The notes: generated by a model from the letters alone, not told the origin. Positions 22,022 through 31,168 are shown, numbered from the stretch's first letter. The stretch is 64,000 nt of DNA from Alphaproteobacteria bacterium (GCA_963665325.3 CAXXWS020000001.1:64001-128000), one strand, 5' to 3'. Made by a program: numbers and translations.

Positions 22022-22276
22022 ATGGTCGCGACGTTCGTCGAGCTCCGTTCCTCCGCGGTGACGGTGTCCTATTTCGAGCGGGACGGCTACTACGCGAGGA
22101 ACGACCCGGAGCACCGGCAGGCGAGTTTCTGGCACGGGGGCGCGGCGCAGGCGCTGGGGCTCGGGGGCCATGTGCGCCCGAAGCGGTTCGAGTCGGTTCT
22201 GGCGGGGTTCGTGCCGGGGACGGACATCCGGCTCGGTCGGATGCGCGAGGGCGAGCGCGTTCACCGGCCCGGCTGG
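22022..22276 (+). pseudogene. MOBF (TrwC-type) relaxase, N-terminal 85 codons, interrupted by transposon
   Basis: SYFERDGYY catalytic tyrosines, WHGGAAQALGL and HRPGW, which joins in frame to DLTFSAPKSVS at 26666. Confidence 0.9.
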
Positions 22277-22360
22277 TGAGTGTGCTCTCGGTATCTGATG
22301 GCGGGATGGTCACGTTGTTCGATGGTTTTCAGGCGTCGGGCCGGGCGTGACGGCGGGGGT

Positions 22361-22447
22361 GTCGGACGGCCGTCGGCGCGTCAAGCCGCTTCGCGGCTCC
22401 TGCGCTGCGCTCCGGCCCTTCGGGTGACCCGCCGCCGTCCCTCCGAC
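22361..22447. repeat. Long imperfect hairpin near the transposon end
   Basis: GTCGGACGGCCGTCGGCGCGTCA versus TGACCCGCCGCCGTCCCTCCGAC is 19/23 complementary; encloses the small AGCCGC-TTC-GCGGCT hairpin. Confidence 0.65.
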
Positions 22448-22522
22448 GGAGTGCATCCATGGCCGTAAGCAAGCTTCCGGCCACGGGCCGGCCGCTTTAC
22501 GCAGTGTGACAATGGGAGCGGT

Positions 22523-22583
22523 GTTACCCGTTACCGTTACCCTCTCTCCCTAGGGGTTCGAGGCGGTAACGGTTTTCGGTAAC
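22523..22583. repeat. Inverted hexamer cluster (3x GTTACC, 2x GGTAAC) at the 3' end of the helicase gene; origin-like
   Basis: GTTACC at 22523, 22530, 22536; GGTAAC at 22565, 22578; spacer CTCTCTCCCTAGGGG. Confidence 0.7.
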
Positions 22584-23548
22584 GTGTCCCTGCGGTCGTT
22601 GCCGTTGAGGGCGGCGAGGCGGTATCCGCCTTCGGATGCGCGCTCGACGCGTCCTTCGCGGACGAGCCTGTGCAGCGCCTCGGCGACGGTTGCGGGCCGG
22701 GTTGCCGCGCGCTCGCGGATCCGGCGCTGGGAGAGCGGCGCGTCGGCGTCGGCGAGGGCCTGCAGGATGCGCCGTTCGGGGGTATCCGGCTCCGGCGCCT
22801 GGTCTTCCGGCGTCTCGCGCAACCGCAGGGCGGGGCGCTCGTCGTCGTCGGCGAGTTCGATCTCGAGGTCTTCGAGGCCAGGGGCGTCGCGATGCTCGAC
22901 GGTCATGAGGATCTGGCGGTCTCGCCGGCGCAGGTACAGATTCGAATCGCCCCAGGCGTGAAGTTCGCTGCTGCCGCGCAGCGCCTGCCCGGGCCGGGAG
23001 CCGCCGCTCTTTCGTGCGTGATGGACGAGGAGGACGGCGGTTTCGAAGCGGCGCTGTATGTCGCGCAGGAAGCCCAGCATGGGGGCGACCTCGGCGACGG
23101 TATTTTCGTCGACGCCGTGCAGGCGCACGAGGGGGTCGAGGACGACGAGGCGGGGTGAGACGCGCTCCACCGTCTCGACCAGGCGCTGGCGATCGGCGCG
23201 ATGGTCGAGACGCAGCGTGGGCACGTCGATGACGGCGATGTCGAGGGTCTCGAACGCGGTGCCTGCCGCCTTTGCGATGCCCTGGAGGCGTGCGCGCACG
23301 ATATGGCCGGCGTCCTCGGCGGCGAACAGCAGCACGGGGCCGCTTGCGGCGGGACGGAAGTGGCGCAGGCAGGGGACGCCGGCGGCGACCGCGACGGCGA
23401 TGTCGAGTGCGAGGAAGGATTTGCCGCACTTGGGCTCGCCGCCGACGATGCCGACGCCCTGCTCGGACCACAACGCCTCGACCATCCAGCGGCGCGCCTG
23501 GGGGCGCTCTTCGAGCTCCGCCGGCGCCCGTGTCGGGAAGCCCTTCAC
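22550..23548 (-). CDS. AAA_25 / RepA-like (RecA-fold) helicase with C-terminal winged HTH
   Basis: GTG start with GAGGAGG RBS overlapping the ATPase stop; RWMVEAL, GGEPKCGKS, LVVLDPL, LLVHHARK, ALRGSS. Confidence 0.82.
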   Translation of the reverse strand: MKGFPTRAPAELEERPQARRWMVEALWSEQGVGIVGGEPKCGKSFLALDIAVAVAAGVPCLRHFRPAASGPVLLFAAEDAGHIVRARLQGIAKAAGTAFETLDIAVIDVPTLRLDHRADRQRLVETVERVSPRLVVLDPLVRLHGVDENTVAEVAPMLGFLRDIQRRFETAVLLVHHARKSGGSRPGQALRGSSELHAWGDSNLYLRRRDRQILMTVEHRDAPGLEDLEIELADDDERPALRLRETPEDQAPEPDTPERRILQALADADAPLSQRRIRERAATRPATVAEALHRLVREGRVERASEGGYRLAALNGNDRRDTLPKTVTASNP

Positions 23549-24378
23549 CGCCGCGCCCTCCTCGGCTTGGCGGGTTCGCCCAGGGTCTCGATGAAGAGCT
23601 TCTCGTCGAGGACCTCGCGCTCCTTCTCGGCGGCGGCGGCGAGCAGGGCGTCGGCCATGACGGTGAGCGCCCGCGGGTTGCCGTCGGCATGGGCGACCAG
23701 GGTGTCCTTGAGGCCCGCGGTCATGAGGCCGGGATTGCCGGCCTGCTCGATCAGATGGTCGAGCAGGGCCGCGAGGTCGCCGGCCTCGGCCTTGGTCATG
23801 ACCAGGCGCTGGCGGATGCGCGAGGCGATGGGCTGCAGATCGGGCTGGCGGAGCTTGTCGAGCAGGCGCGTGTCGCCGGCGAGGACGACCGAGAGGATGG
23901 CGCGCGAGTCGAAGTCGGTCGAAGCCAGCAGGCGGATCTCGGAGAACACCGAGGGCAGCAGCTCCTGGGCCTCGTCGACGAGCACGACGGGGCGCATGCG
24001 GGTATCGTCGACATGGGCGAGCCAGCGCTCGCGCAGGCTTTTGAAGCTGGCCCAGCGGTTGTTGTACATCAGGTCGACGCCGAACATCTCGCCGATCTCG
24101 CGGTAGAAGTCGGACAGCCGGGAGGAGGGATGGGTGATGGCGGCGATGCTGAGCCCCTCGCAGCGGCCGAGACGGTCGGCGAGCAGGCGCAACGCCACAC
24201 TCTTTCCGGCGCCGGGCTCGCCGGCGATCAAGGCGAAGCCGCCCTGGCGCACCAGGTGGCGCTCGATCCTGAGGCAGAAGCTGTCGACGGCAGGCGTCGC
24301 CATGAGACTGTCGACCGGCAGGTCGGTGGCGAAGGGGTTCCACTTGAGCCCGTAGAAGGTGAGCAGTTCCCGGTTCAT
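23545..24378 (-). CDS. ExeA-family / TnsC-like AAA+ ATPase
   Basis: YGLKWNPF, GEPGAGKS, VVLVDEAQ, IASRI, GNPRAL. Confidence 0.85.
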   Translation of the reverse strand: MNRELLTFYGLKWNPFATDLPVDSLMATPAVDSFCLRIERHLVRQGGFALIAGEPGAGKSVALRLLADRLGRCEGLSIAAITHPSSRLSDFYREIGEMFGVDLMYNNRWASFKSLRERWLAHVDDTRMRPVVLVDEAQELLPSVFSEIRLLASTDFDSRAILSVVLAGDTRLLDKLRQPDLQPIASRIRQRLVMTKAEAGDLAALLDHLIEQAGNPGLMTAGLKDTLVAHADGNPRALTVMADALLAAAAEKEREVLDEKLFIETLGEPAKPRRARR

Positions 24379-25850
24379 GGCGCATCTCCCCGATCTTCGT
24401 CCTCGCCCGGACCGGGCGTCTTGTCATGGGGCAGCCAGGCCGGCGGCAGGCCGGTTGCGGCCTGGGCGTCGAGCATGCCCTTGAGCAGCGGCGGAAGTTC
24501 CCCCGTCCCCGCGCCGCCATTGCCATCGTTGCCGCCGGGGCCGGCGGGACGGCGCACGCCATCGGCGTTGCCGCGCTTGTCGAGGGGGTACAGCGTGCAC
24601 AGGCGCTCGCCGCCTCGACCGTCGATCAGATCGACGCTGGCGAGGTTCCAGCGCGCGTAACGGATCCAGGCCTCGCGCAGGTGGCGCCACGGCTGTGGCA
24701 CCTGGTAGCGGATGCCCTCGACCGAGACGGTGCCGTCCGAGCGCCTGAGCGTGCGCTTCCTGGTGATGCGGAAGGCCGCCTTGAGCTCGGCCGAGCCGGG
24801 GCAGGATCTCGACGCGTCGACGCTCCCGGCCAGGCGTTGATGCGGCGTCATGCCGAGCTCGCGGTGCTTGCGGCGGTGATAGTCCTGCTCCAGCCAGGCG
24901 ATGGTGGCGTCGTTGAGCATCTTCAAGGTAAGCGCGTCGACGCCTTCGAGCTGAGCCATCAGGCGCGATTCGACCGTGCCCCAGAACGACTCGATCTTGC
25001 CGTTCTGATGGGGGCTGTAAGCGAGCGTCGTGACCCCCGCGATGCCGAGCCGGTGCAACCCCTCCTCGACCTCGCCCGCGGTCATCGCCGCGCCGTTGTC
25101 GGTCAGCAGGGACCTCGGCAGACCGCGCTTCATGAAGGCCTGGCAAAGGCCGTGGACGAACACCTCGGCGGTCTCGGCGAGGTACCACTGAAGGTGGCAG
25201 CCGAGGCGCGAGTGGTCGTCGAGGAAGCCGAGCAGGATCGGCGTCTTCCACTCGCCCGAGGCGGTCAGCACGCGACGCTTGGCGCTGTGCATGTCGGCGT
25301 GCCACAGGGCGTGAGAGCGCGAGACCTCGTAGCTCAATACCTCGCGGGCTTCGACCGCCGGCCTGGCCTCGCTCTCATGCCACTTGCGCCGGCGCTTGCG
25401 TACCAGCCCGCGAGCCCGCATCGCCCGGGTCAGCGTCGCGTAGGACGGTATCGGGCCGAGCTCGGGATCGGCCTCGACCCGCGCGGCCAGATTCTCGTGA
25501 TGAAGCTGCGCCGACCACGACGGATGCGCCCGGTACTGCTCGTGCAGCGCCTCGATCAGCGTCGGCGACATCGCGCGCGGGCGCCCGGCATCGGCGCGCG
25601 GGCGCCGCTTGAGCGCCCCCACCGGATCGTTGTCCGCCGCCCGCGCCTGGTAGTACCAGCGCTCGATCGTGGACACCGCGAAGCGCACCCGGCCCTTGCC
25701 GGACGGGTGATCCCACTCGCGTTCGGCAAGCCGCTCAAGCTCGGCGTGCAGCCGCCCCGCCGGCGGCGGCGAGGCCAGAAGCGGCCCGACCACCGCGAAG
25801 CGCAACCGCGCCCACCGGTCGCGACGCTCGCTCCCGTCGTTGCTGTTCAT
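24375..25850 (-). CDS. DDE integrase/transposase (rve core, Mu-like C-terminus)
   Basis: HTH STIERWYY; WHADMH, LDDHSR, LTDNG, NGKIESFW catalytic residues; DGTVSVEGIRYQVP C-terminal barrel. Confidence 0.9.
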   Translation of the reverse strand: MNSNDGSERRDRWARLRFAVVGPLLASPPPAGRLHAELERLAEREWDHPSGKGRVRFAVSTIERWYYQARAADNDPVGALKRRPRADAGRPRAMSPTLIEALHEQYRAHPSWSAQLHHENLAARVEADPELGPIPSYATLTRAMRARGLVRKRRRKWHESEARPAVEAREVLSYEVSRSHALWHADMHSAKRRVLTASGEWKTPILLGFLDDHSRLGCHLQWYLAETAEVFVHGLCQAFMKRGLPRSLLTDNGAAMTAGEVEEGLHRLGIAGVTTLAYSPHQNGKIESFWGTVESRLMAQLEGVDALTLKMLNDATIAWLEQDYHRRKHRELGMTPHQRLAGSVDASRSCPGSAELKAAFRITRKRTLRRSDGTVSVEGIRYQVPQPWRHLREAWIRYARWNLASVDLIDGRGGERLCTLYPLDKRGNADGVRRPAGPGGNDGNGGAGTGELPPLLKGMLDAQAATGLPPAWLPHDKTPGPGEDEDRGDAP

Positions 25851-25898
25851 TCCGGCATCCCCCTCGCTGCTTCGTGGAGGTGCCGATGATGCGGTGCC

Positions 25899-26513
25899 CT
25901 ATCCGTGCATCATAGAAACGCTTTCTGCGGGCGAAGCCGGACCTGCGCCGAGCGCGCAAAAGCCGGTCCACGGCATCAGCCAGACCAGGCTCCGCAGCAG
26001 CCGCGAGCGGAAGCCACGGCCCCGCATGATGCGCAGCAGCCGGCGCAGCGGCGCCTCTTCGGGCGGCGCCGCCAGCTCGCCCCGTCTCGCCTGCCACTCC
26101 CGGGTCAGCGGGAAGGCTTCCAGCCACCAGCGCCGCCAGCGCTTCAGCGTCGAGGCCGGAACCCCGCACCGCCGCGCGATCGTCTGCAACCGCGCGCCGC
26201 CGGCCACAGCCAGCGCACTCACCACAAGGAACAGCGCCCCGACGTAAAAGCGCCTGCCGAAGAAACGCACCGACGGCGGCTTCACGCGGCGTCGGCACAC
26301 CGAACAGCACAGGCTGAAGCGCCGAACGTCGTTCCGAAGATTCGCCGCCAGACCGTGCGGCTTGCGCGGGTAGCTCGCGCTGTGAAGCGCGCCGCCGCAG
26401 CGCGGGCAACCCGCCGCCCGGCACGCCTCCGCCTCGGCCGCGTCGACCTGCTTCAGAAAATCCCAAACCCGGGCGTTGGAGAGATTGGAGTGCCGGAACA
26501 GCTTGTGCGACAT
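25899..26513 (-). CDS. Zn-finger plus HTH transposon accessory protein
   Basis: CPRC...CCSVC, PPSVRFFGRR, IARRCGVPASTLKRWRRWW; first gene of the transposon operon. Confidence 0.7.
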   Translation of the reverse strand: MSHKLFRHSNLSNARVWDFLKQVDAAEAEACRAAGCPRCGGALHSASYPRKPHGLAANLRNDVRRFSLCCSVCRRRVKPPSVRFFGRRFYVGALFLVVSALAVAGGARLQTIARRCGVPASTLKRWRRWWLEAFPLTREWQARRGELAAPPEEAPLRRLLRIMRGRGFRSRLLRSLVWLMPWTGFCALGAGPASPAESVSMMHG

Positions 26514-26665
26514 TGGGGCCGTCTCAGGTTGATGTCACTGTCACCGAGACAAGCCCTCCGGCGGCCTTCTTGCAAGATCGCCGGGGGGCACCCAATCCAA
26601 AACCTCGATTAATCCGAGCCGATCAGCCCCTGATCGCCGCTGAAAGCCTGCGCCCGCTCAACTGG

Positions 26666-29600
26666 GACCTCACCTTCTCGGCGCCGAAGTCTGTGTCGAT
26701 CGAGGCGCTGGTGATGGGCGACCGGCGGGTGATCCGGGCGCATGACGAGGCAGTGCGCGCGACGCTCGACTGGGTGGAACGGGACCTGTTGCAGACGCGG
26801 GGGTGGGATGCGGTGACGCGGCGGCGCCCGCGGGTGAAGGCCGGCGGCATGGTCGCGGCCGGGTTCCGGCACCTGACCAGCCGCGACCGGGACCCGACGC
26901 TGCACACGCACTGCGTGCTGGCCAACATGACGCGCAATGCGGACGGCCAGTGGCGCAGCGTCGAGCCGACGGCCATCAAGTGGAACAAGAAGCTGATCGG
27001 GTCCTATTACCGCAACGAGCTGGCGCGGCGGCTGGAGGCGCTCGGCATGGCGGTCGCGCCGCGGCTGGTCGGACGCATCCCGGGCTTCGAGCTTGCGGGC
27101 TACTCGCGCGACTTCGTCGAGGCGTTCTCGGCCCGGCGGCTGGCGATCGAGGCCGACCTGAAGCGCAACAAGCTGCCATACACGGCGAAGAATGCGCAGG
27201 CGGCGGCGCTGCGCACCCGCAGGCGCAAGAGCGAGGAGAGCCTGGCGGACCTCGTGCCGGAATGGCGCGCGCGGGTCCGCGAGCTGGGCCTCGTGCGCGA
27301 GAAGGCGGCGCTGGCGCCGCCCCGGCCGCTGGACCCGCTGACGGGAGAGCGGACGGCGCGGCCATGCATGCCGGCGCTCGATGCGACGGCGAACGAGCTG
27401 AGGCGGCAGAGGCGCGCGCCGGCCCTGCCGAAGCTGCCGCGCGACGGGGCGGCGGTCCGGGCGGACAAGGCGTCCCTGCGGCTGGCGCGCTCGACGGCGC
27501 GGGCGGAACTCTCATATGGGCCGGCGCCAGGCCTGCTGGAAGTGGTGGCGCGCGCGGTGGCGCATGTCGAGGAACGGCGGGTGCACATCCCGGAGGCGGA
27601 GATAAGGGCCGTCGCGCTCGGCCATGCGCCGGGGCGCTACACGCTGGCAGAGGTCGATACCGCCATCGCACGCCTGGTGCGGAGCGGCGAGCTGGTCGAG
27701 ACCGAGAGCCGGGGCGCGGACCGGGCCTTCGTCACCGACCGCGCCGTGAAGACCGAGCGGCGCATGCTGGCGGCGATGCGCGCGGAGTGCGGCAGGGGAA
27801 CGGCGCAGGCGGAGGCGGTCGCGGTCGAGGCGCGGCTTCGGCAAAGCGGCCTCACAAGCGGCCAGCAGCAGGCGGTCCGCGCGATCCTGCTCTCCCGCGA
27901 CCGTATCGTCGGCGTGCAGGGCCATGCCGGCAGCGGCAAGACCACCATGCTGCGCACGGTTAAGGAGTTGCTGGACGGCAGGACGATCATGGGCCTTGCG
28001 CCCTCGGCGTCGGCGGCCAGGGTTCTGGCAAGGGAGGCGGACATCCCGTCCCGGACACTGCAATGGTTCCTCACCCGCCACGGGGACCTATCCGATCCCG
28101 CGCGGCTCGCCCGGGCGCGGGCCGAGTTCGGGCGCGCGGTGCTGGCGGTGGATGAGGCCTCGATGATCGACACGGTGCGCATGGAGGCGCTGCTCCGGAT
28201 CGCGCGCAATCTCGGCGTGGCCCGCATTGTCCTTGTCGGCGACACGGCGCAGCTGCGCGCCGTCGATGCGGGCCAGCCCTTCCGGGTGCTGCAGAAGGCC
28301 GGCATGGCGACGGCGGTCATGGACGAGGTGCTGCGCCAGAAGGACCCGGAACTGAAGACGGCGGCGGGCCGCGCCCGGGAAGGCGAGCCGGGGGCGGCGA
28401 TCCGGGAACTCGGCCCGCGTGTGCATGAACATTCCCGCGAGGAGCTCGGCCCGGATGCGGGCCGGCGCTGGCTGGCGCTATCGCCGGAGGAGCGCGCCGA
28501 CGCCCTCATCCTGGCGCCGACCCATGCGATCCGCCGGCAGGTGAACGAGACCGTGCGCGAGGGGCTGGAGGCGGAGGGGCTGCTGCACGGGCGCGCGCTG
28601 GCGATCGACCGCCTTGTGGACCGCCGCCTGACGCGCGCGCAGGCCTCCGACATACGCAGCTACGAGCCGGGCGACACGGTGGTCTTCCATCGTGATGTGT
28701 TCGGCTGCCGGGCGGGCGACGTCTGCATGGTGACGGGCAAGGATGAGGGGCATGTGGCGATGGCCGGTCCGGACGGCGGCGAGCGCCGGTTCCGGCCCTC
28801 GGGCAATGCGGCGGCATATCTCGGGCTCTACGACACCGAGCGGATCGAGGTCATGACGGGCGACCGTATCCGCTGGACCCGCAACCGCAAGGCGCCGCCC
28901 GCAAGGTTCGGCCACCCGCGCCAGCCGGACCTGGTAAACGGCGGCGAGGCGGAGATCGTGGAGATTGACCGCCAGCGGGTGCTGTTCCGCGACGATGCGG
29001 GGCGGACGTTCCCGCTCCGGCGCAAGGACCCCCAGCTTCGCCACCTGGACCACGCGTATTGCTCCACCGTGCATGGCGCGCAGGGCCGCACCGCGCGCGC
29101 CGTCATCGCGGTGCTGGACGCGCATGGCGCCGTCGACCAGGCGATGTTCCATGTCGAGGTCAGCCGGGCCTCGGAGTCGTTCCAGCTGCTGACCGACGAC
29201 CGCGAGGCGCTGGTGGAGATGCTGGAGGCGCGCCCCGACCGCGAGGACGGCGCGCTGGAGGCGCTGGGCCTCGACCCGGCCGCGCTTCCCGTCGTCGAGC
29301 CGGAACTGTTCGAGGCGCTGGCGGCGGACTGGCGCACCCTGCAACGGCAGGGCGAGGAGACGGATACGCCGCCGTTCCTGCTTCCGGGCGCAGACGAGGT
29401 CATGGCGCGCGCGGTCGCGCTCTCCCTCGTCGAGGACCTGCCGGCGGACATGCGGGTATTCCTCGACGGCATGCTGAATGAACACGAACGGCATATCGCG
29501 CATGAGCAGGAGGTGCGGGGCCTGGCCGACCGCCTCCGCGCGCACTGGCGGCGCTGGCCGGAACTCGGCTGGATCGCCTCGGCGCGGGGCTGCGCGCGGC

Positions 29601-31168
29601 AGGACCTGCCGGAACGTGCGGCGTGGCGCGAGGAAGGCGAGGCGCTGCTGGACGAGGCATGCGGCCTGGACGTGATACCGGACATTGCCGCCGGGCTTGA
29701 AGGCGAGATGGCGGCGGTGGAGCGCATGCGGCTGCGTGACGATGCCGAACGATTCCGGCGCGACCGGACGGCGCTCGGCGCGGGCGCCGTCCGCGAGGGC
29801 GTGCCGGAGCTGCATATGGAGGGCTGCGCCGAACTTGCCGCACTGGCCGGACGGCTCGCGCAAGCCGAGGGCCTCGACCCGGCCGACCGGCGCCTGGTGG
29901 ACGAGTGGCTGACGGTCCATGACAGGCAGACGGCGCTTGCCGGTGCGGTCCGCTCGCTGCCGAGCCGGGCGGAGGCATGGCGGGCGCGCAGGGAGACGGA
30001 CCTGCCGCTTGACAGGCATGGCGGGGCCGACCCGGTCGATCCCGCCTGCCGCGCCTGGCGCGAGGAGGGCGAGGCGCTCCGGGAAGAGGCCGCCGGCATG
30101 TTGGAGGGGACAAGCCCGCACGGTCCTCACATGGGCGCCGTGCCGGGAGCACGGGAGGCGGTCGCCGCGGCGCTGGCGGAGATCGACGCCGCGGTCTTCG
30201 AGGACCGCTTTCAGCGGTTCGCCTGGCTGACGCGGCATATCACCGGCCAGGCGAAGGAGGCAGGAACCGTATGGTACTATGCGCCCCGCTACCCGGAGAC
30301 GGTCGCCCATGTCCGTTCGCTCTTCGGGGAAGAAAGCCTCGATGAAGACCGGAGGCGGGCCGTCGGAGACTGGCTCCGGTATGACGACCGGTGCGAACGG
30401 CTCCGCCGGGAGATCCGGGACTGGCCGGCGCGCGCCGATGCGCTCCTCGGCGAGCGGCCCGGGCCGGGGAAGGACCTGGGGCCGATGCGGCGCTGGCGCG
30501 CCAGGGCGGAGCCGATGCTGACCGAGGGCCGCGCGATGCAGGCGAAGGAAAGCCCGCATGCGCCCCACCTTGCCGCCATGCCGGACGAATGCAGGGCGCT
30601 GGCCGAAACGGCCGGCCGGCTCGAAAACGCACTGGCCGAAATCGAGACGGCGGAGGTCGACCGCCTTCTGAAGATTGCCGGACTGGCCTCCGAACGGACC
30701 GGCGGCATCGCGTCCGACACGGCCGAACATGCCGATCCGACGCGACACGAGCGCCTGGCAAGGGACCGGGCCCGCGTCGAGGCGTTCCTCGATCTGGCGC
30801 GCAAGCAGCTGGACGAGCGCGACCGCATGGACGGCCTTCCTCGCGAGGTCCGGGCGATGGCGGGGCTGCCGCTCACGCCGGAGGCATGGAAGCAGGACGC
30901 CGATGCGGTGCTTGCCGAGGCAAACGCGCTCGGGCGGGACATCCCGGCGGGGGAACTCAAGGCCCATCTCGCCGCCGCCGGCGCCGGGCCCGATGCGATC
31001 GATGAGAATGCCGCGAAAATTGCCGAACGGCTGCGCGAGGACGAGGAAGCCCGTGCCGCCGAGCGGCAACGGCAGGCGGAGCAACAGGCGCAGGCCCGGG
31101 AGGCCGAACGCCTGAAGCTCGAAGAGGAACGGGAACAGAGCGAGGGCGGCGGGATGTCGATGTCGTAG
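26666..31168 (+). pseudogene. MOBF relaxase-helicase, remainder (HUH domain, RecD-like helicase, long repetitive C-terminus); 1,585 aa when rejoined
   Basis: DLTFSAPKSVS, HLTSRDRDPTLHTH, QGHAGSGKTT, VDEASM, VGDTAQL, HAYCSTVHGAQG. Confidence 0.9.

Follow-up and report, generated by a model that had tools for sequence, protein, structure and literature searches.

A probable Tn6049-lineage transposon with its own RepA-type helicase gene, possibly used in transposition-linked DNA synthesis

The window analysed here is a stretch of 64,000 nucleotides from an alphaproteobacterial genome (GCA_963665325.3, CAXXWS020000001.1:64001-128000). It holds a compact four-gene element inserted into a TrwC-type relaxase gene. 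The features of the locus are the following, in window positions:

22022..22276, plus strand: 5′ fragment of a TrwC-type relaxase gene, ending ...HRPGW (ORF list, sequence)
22272-22276, plus strand: left copy of the target duplication, GCTGG, the last 5 bases of the relaxase 5′ fragment
22277-26660, genes on the minus strand: the element, 4,384 bp, with TGAG...CTCA ends and four genes
22277..22340, no strand: helicase-distal end, terminal TGAGTGTGC (copy boundaries, end alignment)
22296-22301 and 22319-22325: TGATGG-type subterminal repeats of the helicase-distal end (motif search positions)
22341..22549, no strand: non-coding stretch of 209 bases from the helicase stop codon to the end repeats
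22550..23548, minus strand: gene 4, RepA-type (AAA_25) helicase-like NTPase of 332 aa (Pfam AAA_25, 5e-36)
23545..24378, minus strand: gene 3, AAA_22 (ExeA/'gspA'-like) ATPase of 277 aa (Pfam AAA_22, 5e-20)
24375..25850, minus strand: gene 2, DDE (rve) transposase of 491 aa (Pfam rve/HTH_32)
25899..26513, minus strand: gene 1, Zn-ribbon and HTH_23 protein of 204 aa (Pfam HTH_23, conserved cysteines)
26540..26590, minus strand: conserved non-coding block upstream of gene 1 (same-end alignment, 8 related elements)
26591..26660, no strand: gene-1-side end, reading inward TGAGCGGGCGC... (copy boundaries, end alignment)
26637-26643 and 26603-26608: subterminal repeats of the gene-1-side end (motif positions)
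26661-26665, plus strand: right copy of the target duplication, ACTGG (sequence)
26661..31168, plus strand: remainder of the relaxase gene, DLTFSAPKS... (sequence)

A sequence-only reading of this DNA had described a precisely delimited four-gene transposon with TGAG...CTCA termini, and both limits and termini were borne out by the other copies of the element. BLAST against the host's own genome returned 24 copies, whose common limits are exactly 22277 and 26660. Full-length and 100% identical sequences account for 21 of these 24, two have a 1-nt gap, and one is broken by a 2.07-kb insertion sequence at element positions 274-277. The 18-mers from each element end occur 24 times each in the assembly, and contigs from public runs start at 22277 or stop at 26660 (X2 records 17 and 22; X3 record 29). 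The element is also intact, as had been proposed, with four open and co-oriented frames on the minus strand.

The insertion splits the relaxase gene. Pfam searches on 26513-31168 detected TrwC (6e-62) plus AAA_30, and both flanks match an uninterrupted paralogue located at C5:335949-336100, in agreement with the proposed interruption. Contigs from four runs bridge 22272 to 26662, omitting 4,389 bases, that is, 4,384 plus 5. The flanks of the window copy have no exact suffix/prefix match; their duplication is, as had been read, a 5-bp one with a single mismatch (GCTGG/ACTGG). Across the host genome, exact duplications of 5, 4 and 6 bp flank 10, 8 and 2 copies, respectively, and the remaining copies display a one-mismatch five-bp duplication (2) or swapped flanks (2). 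Among 30 copies of five related elements, 17 had five-bp, 8 four-bp and 1 three-bp duplications, and 4 had none. The duplication length across copies, which had been proposed as a check, is mostly 4 or 5 bp and not one fixed value. Insertion generates 4- or 5-bp target duplications, with no target consensus visible in them. The occurrence of 24 copies with target duplications is far beyond chance, and the element is an active transposon.

Gene 1 was present upstream of the transposase gene in 35 of 36 testable metagenome loci, and its columns CxxC...CCxxC, RKP and RWxxWW show little or no variation across 26 sequences, making it the conserved first gene of the element family. It had no structural match. 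A spacing of 48 bp separates it from the transposase gene, and the last three genes overlap as the sequence-only reading had stated: by ATGA between transposase and ATPase, and by GTGA between ATPase and helicase, where the GTG start of gene 4 overlaps the ATPase stop codon.

The transposase encoded by gene 2 has HTH domains at its N-terminus and, towards the C-terminus, a beta-strand domain and a conserved tail, and it matched PHROG 310 'transposase' (2.4e-40). Its best NCBIfam scores were to IS481/IS3 profiles. Membership in the IS481 family was rejected, as the score of 123.9 bits lies under the cut-off of 224 and the element has four genes, not a single one. With a core of this kind, the transposition pathway may be copy-out or Mu-like. 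The structure model had a mean pLDDT of 58, with a poor core and confident strands at residues 362-420. Its VIA-align scores (TnsB Z 6.8, MuA 6.5 and 6.0, TnsABCD 6.1, IstA 5.4) all fall below the advised Z of 8 and, with that pLDDT, amount to weak similarity.

Meanwhile, gene 3 encodes a presumed target-DNA or helper ATPase of the transposase. It scored 96 bits with the NCBIfam model pepcterm_ATPase, under its cut-off. The earlier label 'TnsC-like' is loose for this AAA_22/ExeA-like protein, which among phage families scored highest with the profile 'DNA transposition protein' (PHROG 296, 1.4e-23). The Zn-ribbon/HTH protein, the rve transposase and the AAA_22 ATPase constitute a conserved three-gene core.

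This core has a named relative. By tblastn, copies of Tn6049 were found in 24 plasmid records, and the products of genes 1, 2 and 3 share 40%, 51% and 52% identity with those of Tn6049 from pMOL30, in the same order. The element is almost certainly a transposon of the Tn6049 lineage. Hence, the claim of an uncharacterised family fails for the first three genes, which match a described and named element, and survives only in that Tn6049 is itself unclassified. According to the portions of the literature available to us, Tn6049 is a named element of Cupriavidus metallidurans whose transposition module "could not be categorized"; it has 12 copies in strain CH34 and also occurs on plasmid pHS87a of Pseudomonas aeruginosa. 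Those portions of the literature searched gave no published mechanism for it.

The protein encoded by gene 4 matched RepA of RSF1010 (PDB 1G8Y) with E-values of 2.4e-8 as a single sequence and 9.5e-16 as a profile, the core being aligned over residues 31-196, and the proposed likeness to this RepA was confirmed. RepA of RSF1010, a hexameric replicative helicase, is also the only solved relative. Across 24 sequences, Walker A, Walker B, HHARK and QxxRGSS do not vary, the C-terminus matches winged-helix families of Pfam (wHTH), and the PHROG matches lie on the helicase parts of phage primase-helicases. Judged by its sequence, gene 4 encodes an RSF1010-RepA-type NTPase with a winged helix. A profile search for the family retrieved 1,604 representatives at 50% identity (E <= 1e-30). 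The element family was found in many metagenomes. 

The helicase gene is tied to the core. Directly after the ATPase gene, it was found in 27 of 40 representative loci detected through the transposase, a count that leaves out the window's own copy, included as reference; this arrangement extends down to 51% transposase identity. Metagenome loci detected through the helicase had the ATPase directly upstream in 70/73 cases with at least 300 bp of room upstream, and the transposase gene upstream in 51/52 cases with at least 1,300 bp. The gap between ATPase and helicase matches was 0-69 nt in 62 metagenome loci. Over 9 pairs, dN/dS was 0.15-0.37 for the helicase; the corresponding ranges were 0.23-0.44 (transposase) and 0.15-0.49 (ATPase). 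The four-gene synteny and the stability of the helicase as an element gene, both raised from the sequence, are thus upheld by these counts, those of gene 1 and the dN/dS values, and the element has retained the helicase over deep divergence. Since the linkage is near-exclusive, the motifs invariant and dN/dS as low as that of the transposase, the helicase is not a casual passenger, and it is very probably a dedicated gene of the element.

The three exceptions to the ATPase linkage (L102, L114 and L119) carry IS21 istA-istB directly upstream of the helicase, with an ATGA overlap in two of the three. The ATPase of L114 matched IstB_IS21 at 3.6e-60, and the helicase of these three loci is 82% identical to the one in a Tn6049-like locus. 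Additionally, a gene with DUF3991 and Toprim_2 domains follows the helicase in 8 of 19 representative relatives of the window's clade.

Not all relatives depend on this gene. Ten rows of the transposase tree, forming the Tn6049 clade, have a gene of 71-76 aa in place of the helicase. In genome G251, none of the 19 helicase matches is whole: a three-recombinase (RIT) element interrupts every copy near residue 160. This genome also contains three identical composites of 8,082 bp, which have an extra frameshift in common and lie at different sites, each with its own 4-5-bp duplication. The sequence-only reading had named helicase-less movers as evidence against its proposal, and this was half realised: the Tn6049 clade, with its 12 copies in CH34 as given in the available literature, and the broken-helicase copies of G251 did move. 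At least some relatives can move without the helicase. Because Tn6049 multiplied without the helicase and copies with a broken one moved, we regard it as a conserved accessory outside the minimal machinery.

These same relatives, together with the position of the gene, last in the operon as is usual for cargo, would fit a helicase that does no service to transposition and benefits the host or the element in some other manner, for example in counter-defence or interference with plasmids or phages. We consider this very unlikely, given the near-exclusive linkage in both directions, the tight or overlapping junctions, purifying selection comparable to that on core genes, the independent linkage to a second transposase and ATPase family (IS21), and the lack of any PADLOC defence-family match.

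A role in target choice or regulation was also considered. The helicase-wHTH protein might steer insertion, for instance to replicating or conjugating DNA, in the manner of the selectors TnsD/TnsE/TniQ of Tn7-type elements, or control how often transposition occurs, or immunity; it would then not be a replication factor. The slot that it fills after the conserved core is a variable one, holding a small protein in Tn6049, and the helicase is portable to IS21 elements. Seven of the 24 copies fall within 120 kb of contig C1, which bears a TrwC relaxase, and the window copy lies inside a relaxase gene of a second replicon. Tn6049, as far as the available report goes, is 'often associated with genomic islands'. 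However, clustering in dispensable mobile DNA would equally result from purifying selection on insertions, the duplications lack a visible target consensus, and a Toprim partner fits DNA synthesis better. Orientation relative to local GC skew was one way in 18/24 copies of the host genome; this bias was not reproduced, as relatives lean the opposite way (22/34). This role seems improbable.

Each end carries a terminal TGAGCG and two TTTGATGG-like repeats in a both-end alignment of 8 related elements; the ends, whose conservation had been proposed as a check, are conserved. The block at 26540..26590, with CTTGCAAGAAG at 26566-26576 and TTGTCTC at 26546-26552, is a candidate promoter or operator. 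At the other side, the 209 non-coding bases at 22341..22549 gave no Rfam match, displayed no iterons and had a predicted fold no better than shuffles (z -1.03). Classic cointegrate-forming transposons carry a resolvase gene; the element has none. No tandem or circle junction of the element ends was found in the assembly, and the circle junction (CTCA-TGAG) that had been proposed as a check was not listed among the contigs of four runs, which drop rare forms.

The non-coding stretch could hold an origin if the element were a transposon-plasmid hybrid, whose plasmid-type replication module copies an excised circular form. The winged helix would bind the origin and the Toprim primase of relatives would assist, resulting in more donors or a lasting circle. 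RSF1010 RepA is a plasmid replicative helicase, helicase and Toprim together resemble a minimal replication module, and the transposase core is nearest to profiles of the IS481/IS3 type, families that use circles. Yet circle or tandem junctions are absent from the assembly and from the joints listed for the four runs (a weak point, these being contigs only), neither iterons nor significant structure occur in the stretch, no RepC-like initiator was seen, and a search of 72,556 plasmid records (E <= 1e-10) did not turn up the helicase. We find this hybrid unlikely.

Based on these findings, we favour a Tn6049-lineage transposon with a dedicated helicase that serves the DNA synthesis of transposition, and we give this whole explanation a probability of roughly 45%, a figure set mainly by the DNA-synthesis role as its weakest step. 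Extrapolating from Mu, Tn7, Tn5053 and IS21, we would expect the transposase to bind the repeated end sites and to join the 3′ CA ends to a target cut with a stagger. The ATPase would capture or prepare target DNA, and the Zn/HTH protein would regulate or assist. The helicase, outside this minimal strand-transfer machinery, would be loaded on the branched transposition intermediate and unwind DNA as the element is copied. The element itself would thereby provide what other replicative or copy-out elements take from their host: a helicase and, in relatives, a Toprim primase. The replication flavour of the helicase comes from RepA homology, primase-helicase PHROG matches, Toprim neighbours and the precedent of IEE, an enhancer of the excision of insertion sequences. 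Its role in transposition-linked DNA synthesis is put forward tentatively. Neither the assembly nor the contigs of the four runs gave direct evidence of a replicated or circular intermediate, which counts against this mechanism. Further points against it are the relatives that move without the helicase, the lack of a resolvase gene, the IS481/IS3 leaning of the transposase core, and the weak structural likeness of the transposase model to TnsB, MuA and IstA (Z 5.4-6.8).

A broader, doubtful version holds that a widespread class of bacterial DDE transposons brings its own fork starter, a RepA-type helicase with a Toprim primase in some, and does not need the host restart primosome. The helicase would be loaded on a strand-transfer or figure-eight intermediate, and the module would be portable between unrelated transposase and ATPase systems, Tn6049-like and IS21.

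To our knowledge, phage Mu is the one case in which replisome recruitment to the branched intermediates of replicative or copy-out transposons is well understood, and for most insertion sequences this step is an open question. If the element does bring its own replicative-type helicase (plus primase in close relatives), the step would be genetically separable and testable by simple deletions. The element shapes its host genome, with 24 copies, a relaxase gene knocked out and exchange mediated between replicons, and its family is large, as the 1,604 representatives and many metagenomes attest. Tn6049, a common uncategorised transposon of metal-resistant Cupriavidus, gains a first functional frame, and the presence of this helicase on IS21 elements too points to an accessory module of general use to ATPase-assisted transposases.

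Among known systems, Tn6049 is the closest. It has the same order and orientation of a small Zn/HTH gene, an rve transposase gene and an AAA ATPase gene, labelled as a 181-aa 'transposase' (the counterpart of gene 1), an NCBI IS481 family transposase and a 277-aa 'gspA' ATPase. As far as the available accounts go, both elements are multi-copy (12 in CH34 vs 24 here), both are invaded by RIT elements (here in relatives, in G251), and the pHS87a report gives Tn6049 terminal repeats that are short and imperfect, with a duplication of 4 bp, compared with 4 or 5 bp here; its ends as reported there begin TGTGC..., whereas ours begin TGAGCG. Tn6049 is 3.5 kb rather than 4,384 bp and has a 71-aa gene instead of the 332-aa helicase; no homologue of this small fourth gene occurs in the window element. 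In the transposase tree, Tn6049-type rows form one clade apart from that of the window.

IS21 shares the two-gene logic of transposase and helper ATPase (IstA and the AAA+ ATPase IstB), and one IS21 lineage has the same helicase directly after istB. IS21 elements have several repeated sites per end, TG...CA ends and variable short duplications. They lack the extra first gene of the window element. Assignment to the IS21 family was rejected (transposase at 45.1 bits against a cut-off of 160, ATPase without an IstB_IS21 match).

With Mu, Tn7, Tn5053/Tn402 and Tn552, the element shares a transposase and ATPase pair, multiple end-binding sites, TG...CA ends and a 5-bp duplication; it has neither resolvase nor TnsA. 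Its four proteins had no Pfam match (E <= 0.01) to TniB, TniQ or the Mu-transposase C-terminal family, names that we take to mark a Tn7/Tn5053 assignment, which was rejected; these families were also absent from 26 gene-1 homologues at E <= 1. A search of 50,697 phage records gave no pairwise match to the element. Mu depends on the restart primosome of its host, and we know of no helicase encoded by any of these four systems. As the sequence-only reading had supposed, no earlier description of a transposase and ATPase element with a RepA-type helicase was found in the literature searched, and an element-encoded helicase of replication type appears not to have been described for this kind of transposon.

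RepA of RSF1010 shares Walker A, Walker B, HHA(S/R)K and RGSS motifs with gene 4, which differs by its C-terminal winged helix and conserved N-terminal extension and belongs to a transposon operon, whereas RepA belongs to a plasmid replicon. The helicase and the Toprim primase-like gene of relatives may recall RepA with the RepB′ primase. Finally, IEE is a PrimPol-helicase reported to act on copy-out-paste-in insertion sequences; it resembles our case as a primase/helicase-type protein that works jointly with a transposase, on insertion sequences with a circular intermediate, but it is encoded outside insertion sequences, belongs to the PrimPol family and promotes excision.

The genome to which the window belongs (five contigs, C1 to C5; 5.58 Mb, 67% G+C) contained 24 copies of the 4,384-bp element, all of which shared the limits 22277 and 26660 of the window copy in a BLAST search of that genome. 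Of these, 21 were full-length and 100% identical, two carried a single 1-nt gap, and one was interrupted by an insertion sequence (IS). The element has undergone a recent transposition burst in this genome. Its termini read TGAG... and ...CTCA, and each terminal 18-mer occurred 24 times, hence solo ends are absent. The window copy interrupts a TrwC-type relaxase gene, whose reading frame breaks off after ...HRPGW and resumes at DLTFSAPKS; an intact paralogue of this gene was found on contig C5. The shared limits of the genomic copies bear out the exact delimitation of the element at this split, as proposed by the sequence-only reading. All four genes were confirmed to be intact and to run in one direction, on the minus strand, with ATGA at the transposase/ATPase junction and GTGA at the ATPase/helicase junction. 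The proposed 5-bp flank duplication with one mismatch (GCTGG/ACTGG) was also right, since contigs from four public runs join window position 22272 to 26662, skipping 4,389 bases, that is, the element plus 5. A 4-bp duplication, CTGG, was ruled out for this copy, as an exact match is absent and the empty site corresponds to 4,384 + 5 bases.

The 1-nt gaps are found in the copies at C1:503215-507597, in which the last ~70 residues of the transposase are frame-shifted, and C3:175650-180032. The interrupting IS (2.07 kb, C1:2290873-2292942, with a 604-aa transposase frame) lies at element positions 274-277, where an overlap of four bases points to a probable 4-bp duplication. Other insertion sequences abound in the genome: an IstB protein is matched at 27-41% identity in at least 18 places, representing two or more IS21 types (e.g., C1:1131308, C1:1106524, and C4:196127), and none of these places was linked to the helicase gene.

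The flanks of the 24 copies displayed exact duplications of 5 bp (n = 10), 4 bp (n = 8), and 6 bp (n = 2), the last of which may represent 5-bp duplications extended by a chance match. Two further copies had a 5-bp duplication with one mismatch, and two had flanks that pair crosswise. Among 30 copies of five related elements from other genomes, duplications measured 5 bp (n = 17), 4 bp (n = 8), or 3 bp (n = 1), and were missing in four cases. The crosswise pair consists of the copies at C2:25283-29666 and C4:930514-934897, which lack duplications of their own and share CCGT (4 bp) and GGTCG (5 bp) between them. This points to recombination between copies, and would be seen if the 196-kb C2 and the 1.1-Mb C4 derive from, or alternate with, one replicon through two direct copies; it could alternatively reflect the choice made by the assembly across a 4.4-kb repeat. 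A 120-kb region (C1:1982775-2101890) contains seven of the 24 copies, six of them in one orientation. This region displays an unusually high GC skew (0.08-0.16), encodes a TrwC relaxase (C1:2045218-2050041), and resembles an integrated conjugative element; a relaxase gene is also the site of the window copy. A bias of orientation relative to replication was considered and rejected: 18 of the 24 copies matched the local GC-skew sign in the window's genome, and 22 of 34 had the opposite sign in five relatives, for which only 6-kb flanks were used.

Gene 1 (204 aa) encodes a CxxC...CCxxC zinc ribbon and an HTH_23 domain, and its cysteines and its RKP and RWxxWW motifs were invariant or nearly so among 26 homologues. 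Its model (pLDDT 66) had no PDB match at E <= 0.001; structural look-alikes in the Atlas include DUF6431 clusters, and assignment to DUF6431 or TniQ was rejected, with Pfam matches in none of the 26 homologues. Gene 2 (491 aa) encodes an rve DDE transposase whose best curated profile was IS481, at 124 bits, below the cut-off of 224, and whose best PHROG family was a 696-position "transposase" profile (2.4e-40). The model of this protein was poor (pLDDT 58), although helical domains at the N-terminus and a beta-strand domain at the C-terminus were predicted with confidence, and its best whole-length structural matches, TnsB, MuA, and IstA, were weak (Z 5.4-6.8). Gene 3 (277 aa) encodes an AAA_22, ExeA-like ATPase with a best phage family annotated as "DNA transposition protein" (1.4e-23). 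Profile searches of the ATPase and the transposase against solved structures returned weak matches only (among them MuB, E 0.056, and retroviral integrase cores, ~1e-3). Neither protein was detected in phage records at 1e-4, and the transposase was present in three of 250 other genomes of a class-level sample, one of which (G240) is unpublished.

By tblastn, the transposase matched 24 plasmid records, mostly from Cupriavidus, while near-identical element DNA was not found in the plasmid collection. On pMOL30, the gene order is a 181-aa "transposase", an IS481-family transposase, an AAA ATPase, and a 71-aa hypothetical protein, the first three of which are 40%, 51%, and 52% identical to the products of genes 1-3. 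In the literature, an element of this kind is named Tn6049 (3.5 kb, 12 copies in strain CH34), the ATPase gene, "gspA", is present in all of its copies, and on pHS87a its terminal repeats are imperfect and 12 bp long, with a direct repeat of 4 bp; the "transposition module ... could not be categorized". By these protein identities, the element belongs to the Tn6049 lineage, which has a name but no classification.

A scan of genome contigs seeded with the transposase gave about 530 candidate loci, of which 80 were used. From these and pMOL30, 40 representatives were drawn, to which the window copy was added as reference. Three forms were distinguished:

Gene content of the three forms of the element
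Form A (Tn6049 type): genes 1-3 followed by a 70-95-aa gene
Form B (window type): genes 1-3 followed by the helicase gene; 4.35-4.43 kb where limits are known
Form C: form B followed by a 289-aa DUF3991 + Toprim_2 gene; 5.16-5.19 kb

Of the 40 representatives, 27 had the helicase after the ATPase gene and ten had the small gene instead, the remaining three ending too early or showing neither. In a quick maximum-likelihood tree of the transposase, rooted only at its midpoint, form A made up one clade (SH-aLRT 88) among B-type lineages, and the window's clade (18 rows, support 100) was composed entirely of forms B and C, with form C at three separate places. The fifth gene lies after the helicase in eight loci (L014:9404-10273, L020:9405-10274, and in L025, L026, L027, L059, L060, and L061). 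Its primase-like product, which had a DnaG-like match in PADLOC, was 80-86% identical inside one group and 47-50% between groups. No Toprim gene of this kind was found elsewhere in the window's genome, and an Atlas search with the small protein of Tn6049 gave no result. Compared with one relative (L011), the window copy was 92% identical in the transposase and only 68% in the helicase; compared with another (L026), dS was 0.41 for the transposase gene and 0.20 for the ATPase gene. Such differing module histories suggest that related elements have recombined.

The product of gene 4 (window 22550-23548; 332 aa) combines an AAA_25 domain with a winged helix. RSF1010 RepA (1G8Y) was the only sequence relative of its NTPase core among solved structures (E 2.4e-8 with the single sequence, 9.5e-16 with the profile), with an alignment spanning Walker A, Walker B, HHA(S/R)K, and RGSS. 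Its PHROG matches were the helicase parts of phage primase-helicases. A profile search returned 1,604 representatives (50% identity) at E <= 1e-30; fusions of the helicase to the ATPase were sought among ten long hits, none of which had an AAA_22 part. The helicase was absent from plasmid records at 1e-10.

One rival explanation is that the helicase is cargo. We scanned metagenome contigs in the reverse direction, seeded with a helicase alignment, and used 80 of 568 candidate loci (50-81% identity). Where there was room for at least 300 bp, the ATPase gene was directly upstream of the helicase in 70 of 73 loci; where there was room for at least 1,300 bp, the transposase gene was upstream in 51 of 52. 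Of the 36 loci that could be tested for gene 1, 35 had it upstream of the transposase. ATPase and helicase matches were separated by 0-69 nt in 62 loci. In nine pairs, dN/dS of the helicase (0.15-0.37) did not exceed that of the transposase (0.23-0.44) or that of the ATPase (0.15-0.49). These results mark the helicase as a dedicated gene of the element, under purifying selection. No Toprim gene was present in the 22 loci that extended at least 900 bp past the helicase, so that in this sample the primase-like gene is confined to the window's clade.

On the side of cargo, the helicase is dispensable in some relatives. Tn6049 lacks it and has nonetheless multiplied to 12 copies. In another genome (G251), none of 19 helicase matches was whole, all being split near residue 160, and in the five copies examined (L052, L053, L054, L062, and L065) the insert was a RIT element with three tyrosine recombinases, further broken by an insertion sequence in L054 and L065. 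Three 8,082-bp composites of this genome were 100% identical and shared a frameshift at residue 71, and they occupied different sites with their own 4-5-bp duplications; therefore, helicase-defective copies have transposed, although an intact copy may have helped in trans. RIT elements may have entered each copy independently and site-specifically, because they are described as invaders of Tn6049-like transposons and recur in the loci studied here (L104 and L128, in the transposase region); the shared frameshift is not explained in this way. The window's genome also has a RIT element (C1:447490-450918), between relics of a related element (~C1:446-452 kb).

The helicase was also found outside this lineage. 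In three metagenome loci without an AAA_22 gene (L102, L114, and L119), an IS21 pair lay directly upstream of it, identified by the IstA C-terminal domain (Mu-transpos_C_2, 1.6e-19) and IstB_IS21 (3.6e-60). In L114 and L119, istB and the helicase frame are linked by ATGA, so that an IS21 end would not fit between them. The three istB genes were 88-90% identical to each other, and the L102 helicase shared 82% identity with its counterpart in the Tn6049-like locus L104. In L102, the helicase gene is preceded, after istB, by a gene for a homologue of the Tn6049 small protein (51% identity over 47 residues, E 2e-9). At a fourth metagenome locus (L151:1003-4502), a helicase of 52% identity followed an rve + AAA_22 pair that is only remotely related (25-26% identity), and a homologue of gene 1 was not detected; the locus represents either a more deeply branching member of the family or a further capture of the helicase. 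Together, the IS21 loci and L151 indicate that the helicase moves between different transposase + ATPase systems, always behind the ATPase gene. A RepA-type NTPase gene is bound to the element, portable to IS21, and joined by a Toprim partner gene in close relatives.

Based on these findings, we propose that the helicase might serve a DNA-synthesis step on a branched transposition intermediate, a reading to which we give a probability of roughly 0.4. Two rivals besides cargo were weighed, namely that the helicase replicates an excised circle, and that it acts in target choice or regulation. Neither circle nor tandem junctions were present in the assembly or among the joints listed from the contigs of the four runs, contigs being blind to rare forms. 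The non-coding parts of the element had no Rfam match at E <= 0.1, and their fold was not significant (z = -1.03). Neither these junctions nor these structures decide between the readings.

The sequence-only reading had proposed an uncharacterised transposon family. This does not stand for the kind, as Tn6049-like transposase + ATPase transposons are already known. Of the helicase-bearing form, the helicase + Toprim form, and the IS21 counterpart, no description was found in the searchable literature, with the reservation that Supplementary Table S5 of PMC3414803, which covers Tn6049-related transposons by protein-cluster composition, may list relatives.

A repeat search of the window copy alone gave no convincing terminal inverted repeats, and the plan of the ends is visible only from relatives. 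An alignment of eight related elements revealed, at both ends, a terminal TGAGCG followed by two TTTGATGG-like repeats ~20 and ~45 bases inward, and a conserved CTTGCAAGAAG block upstream of gene 1. With its conserved three-gene core, structured ends, and 4-5-bp duplications, this is a mobile element. Its transposase and ATPase would work together like the pairs of Mu, Tn7, Tn5053, and IS21. Unlike simple insertion sequences, those elements typically have several repeated sites at each end, and the two subterminal repeats at each end of the present element resemble this multi-site arrangement.
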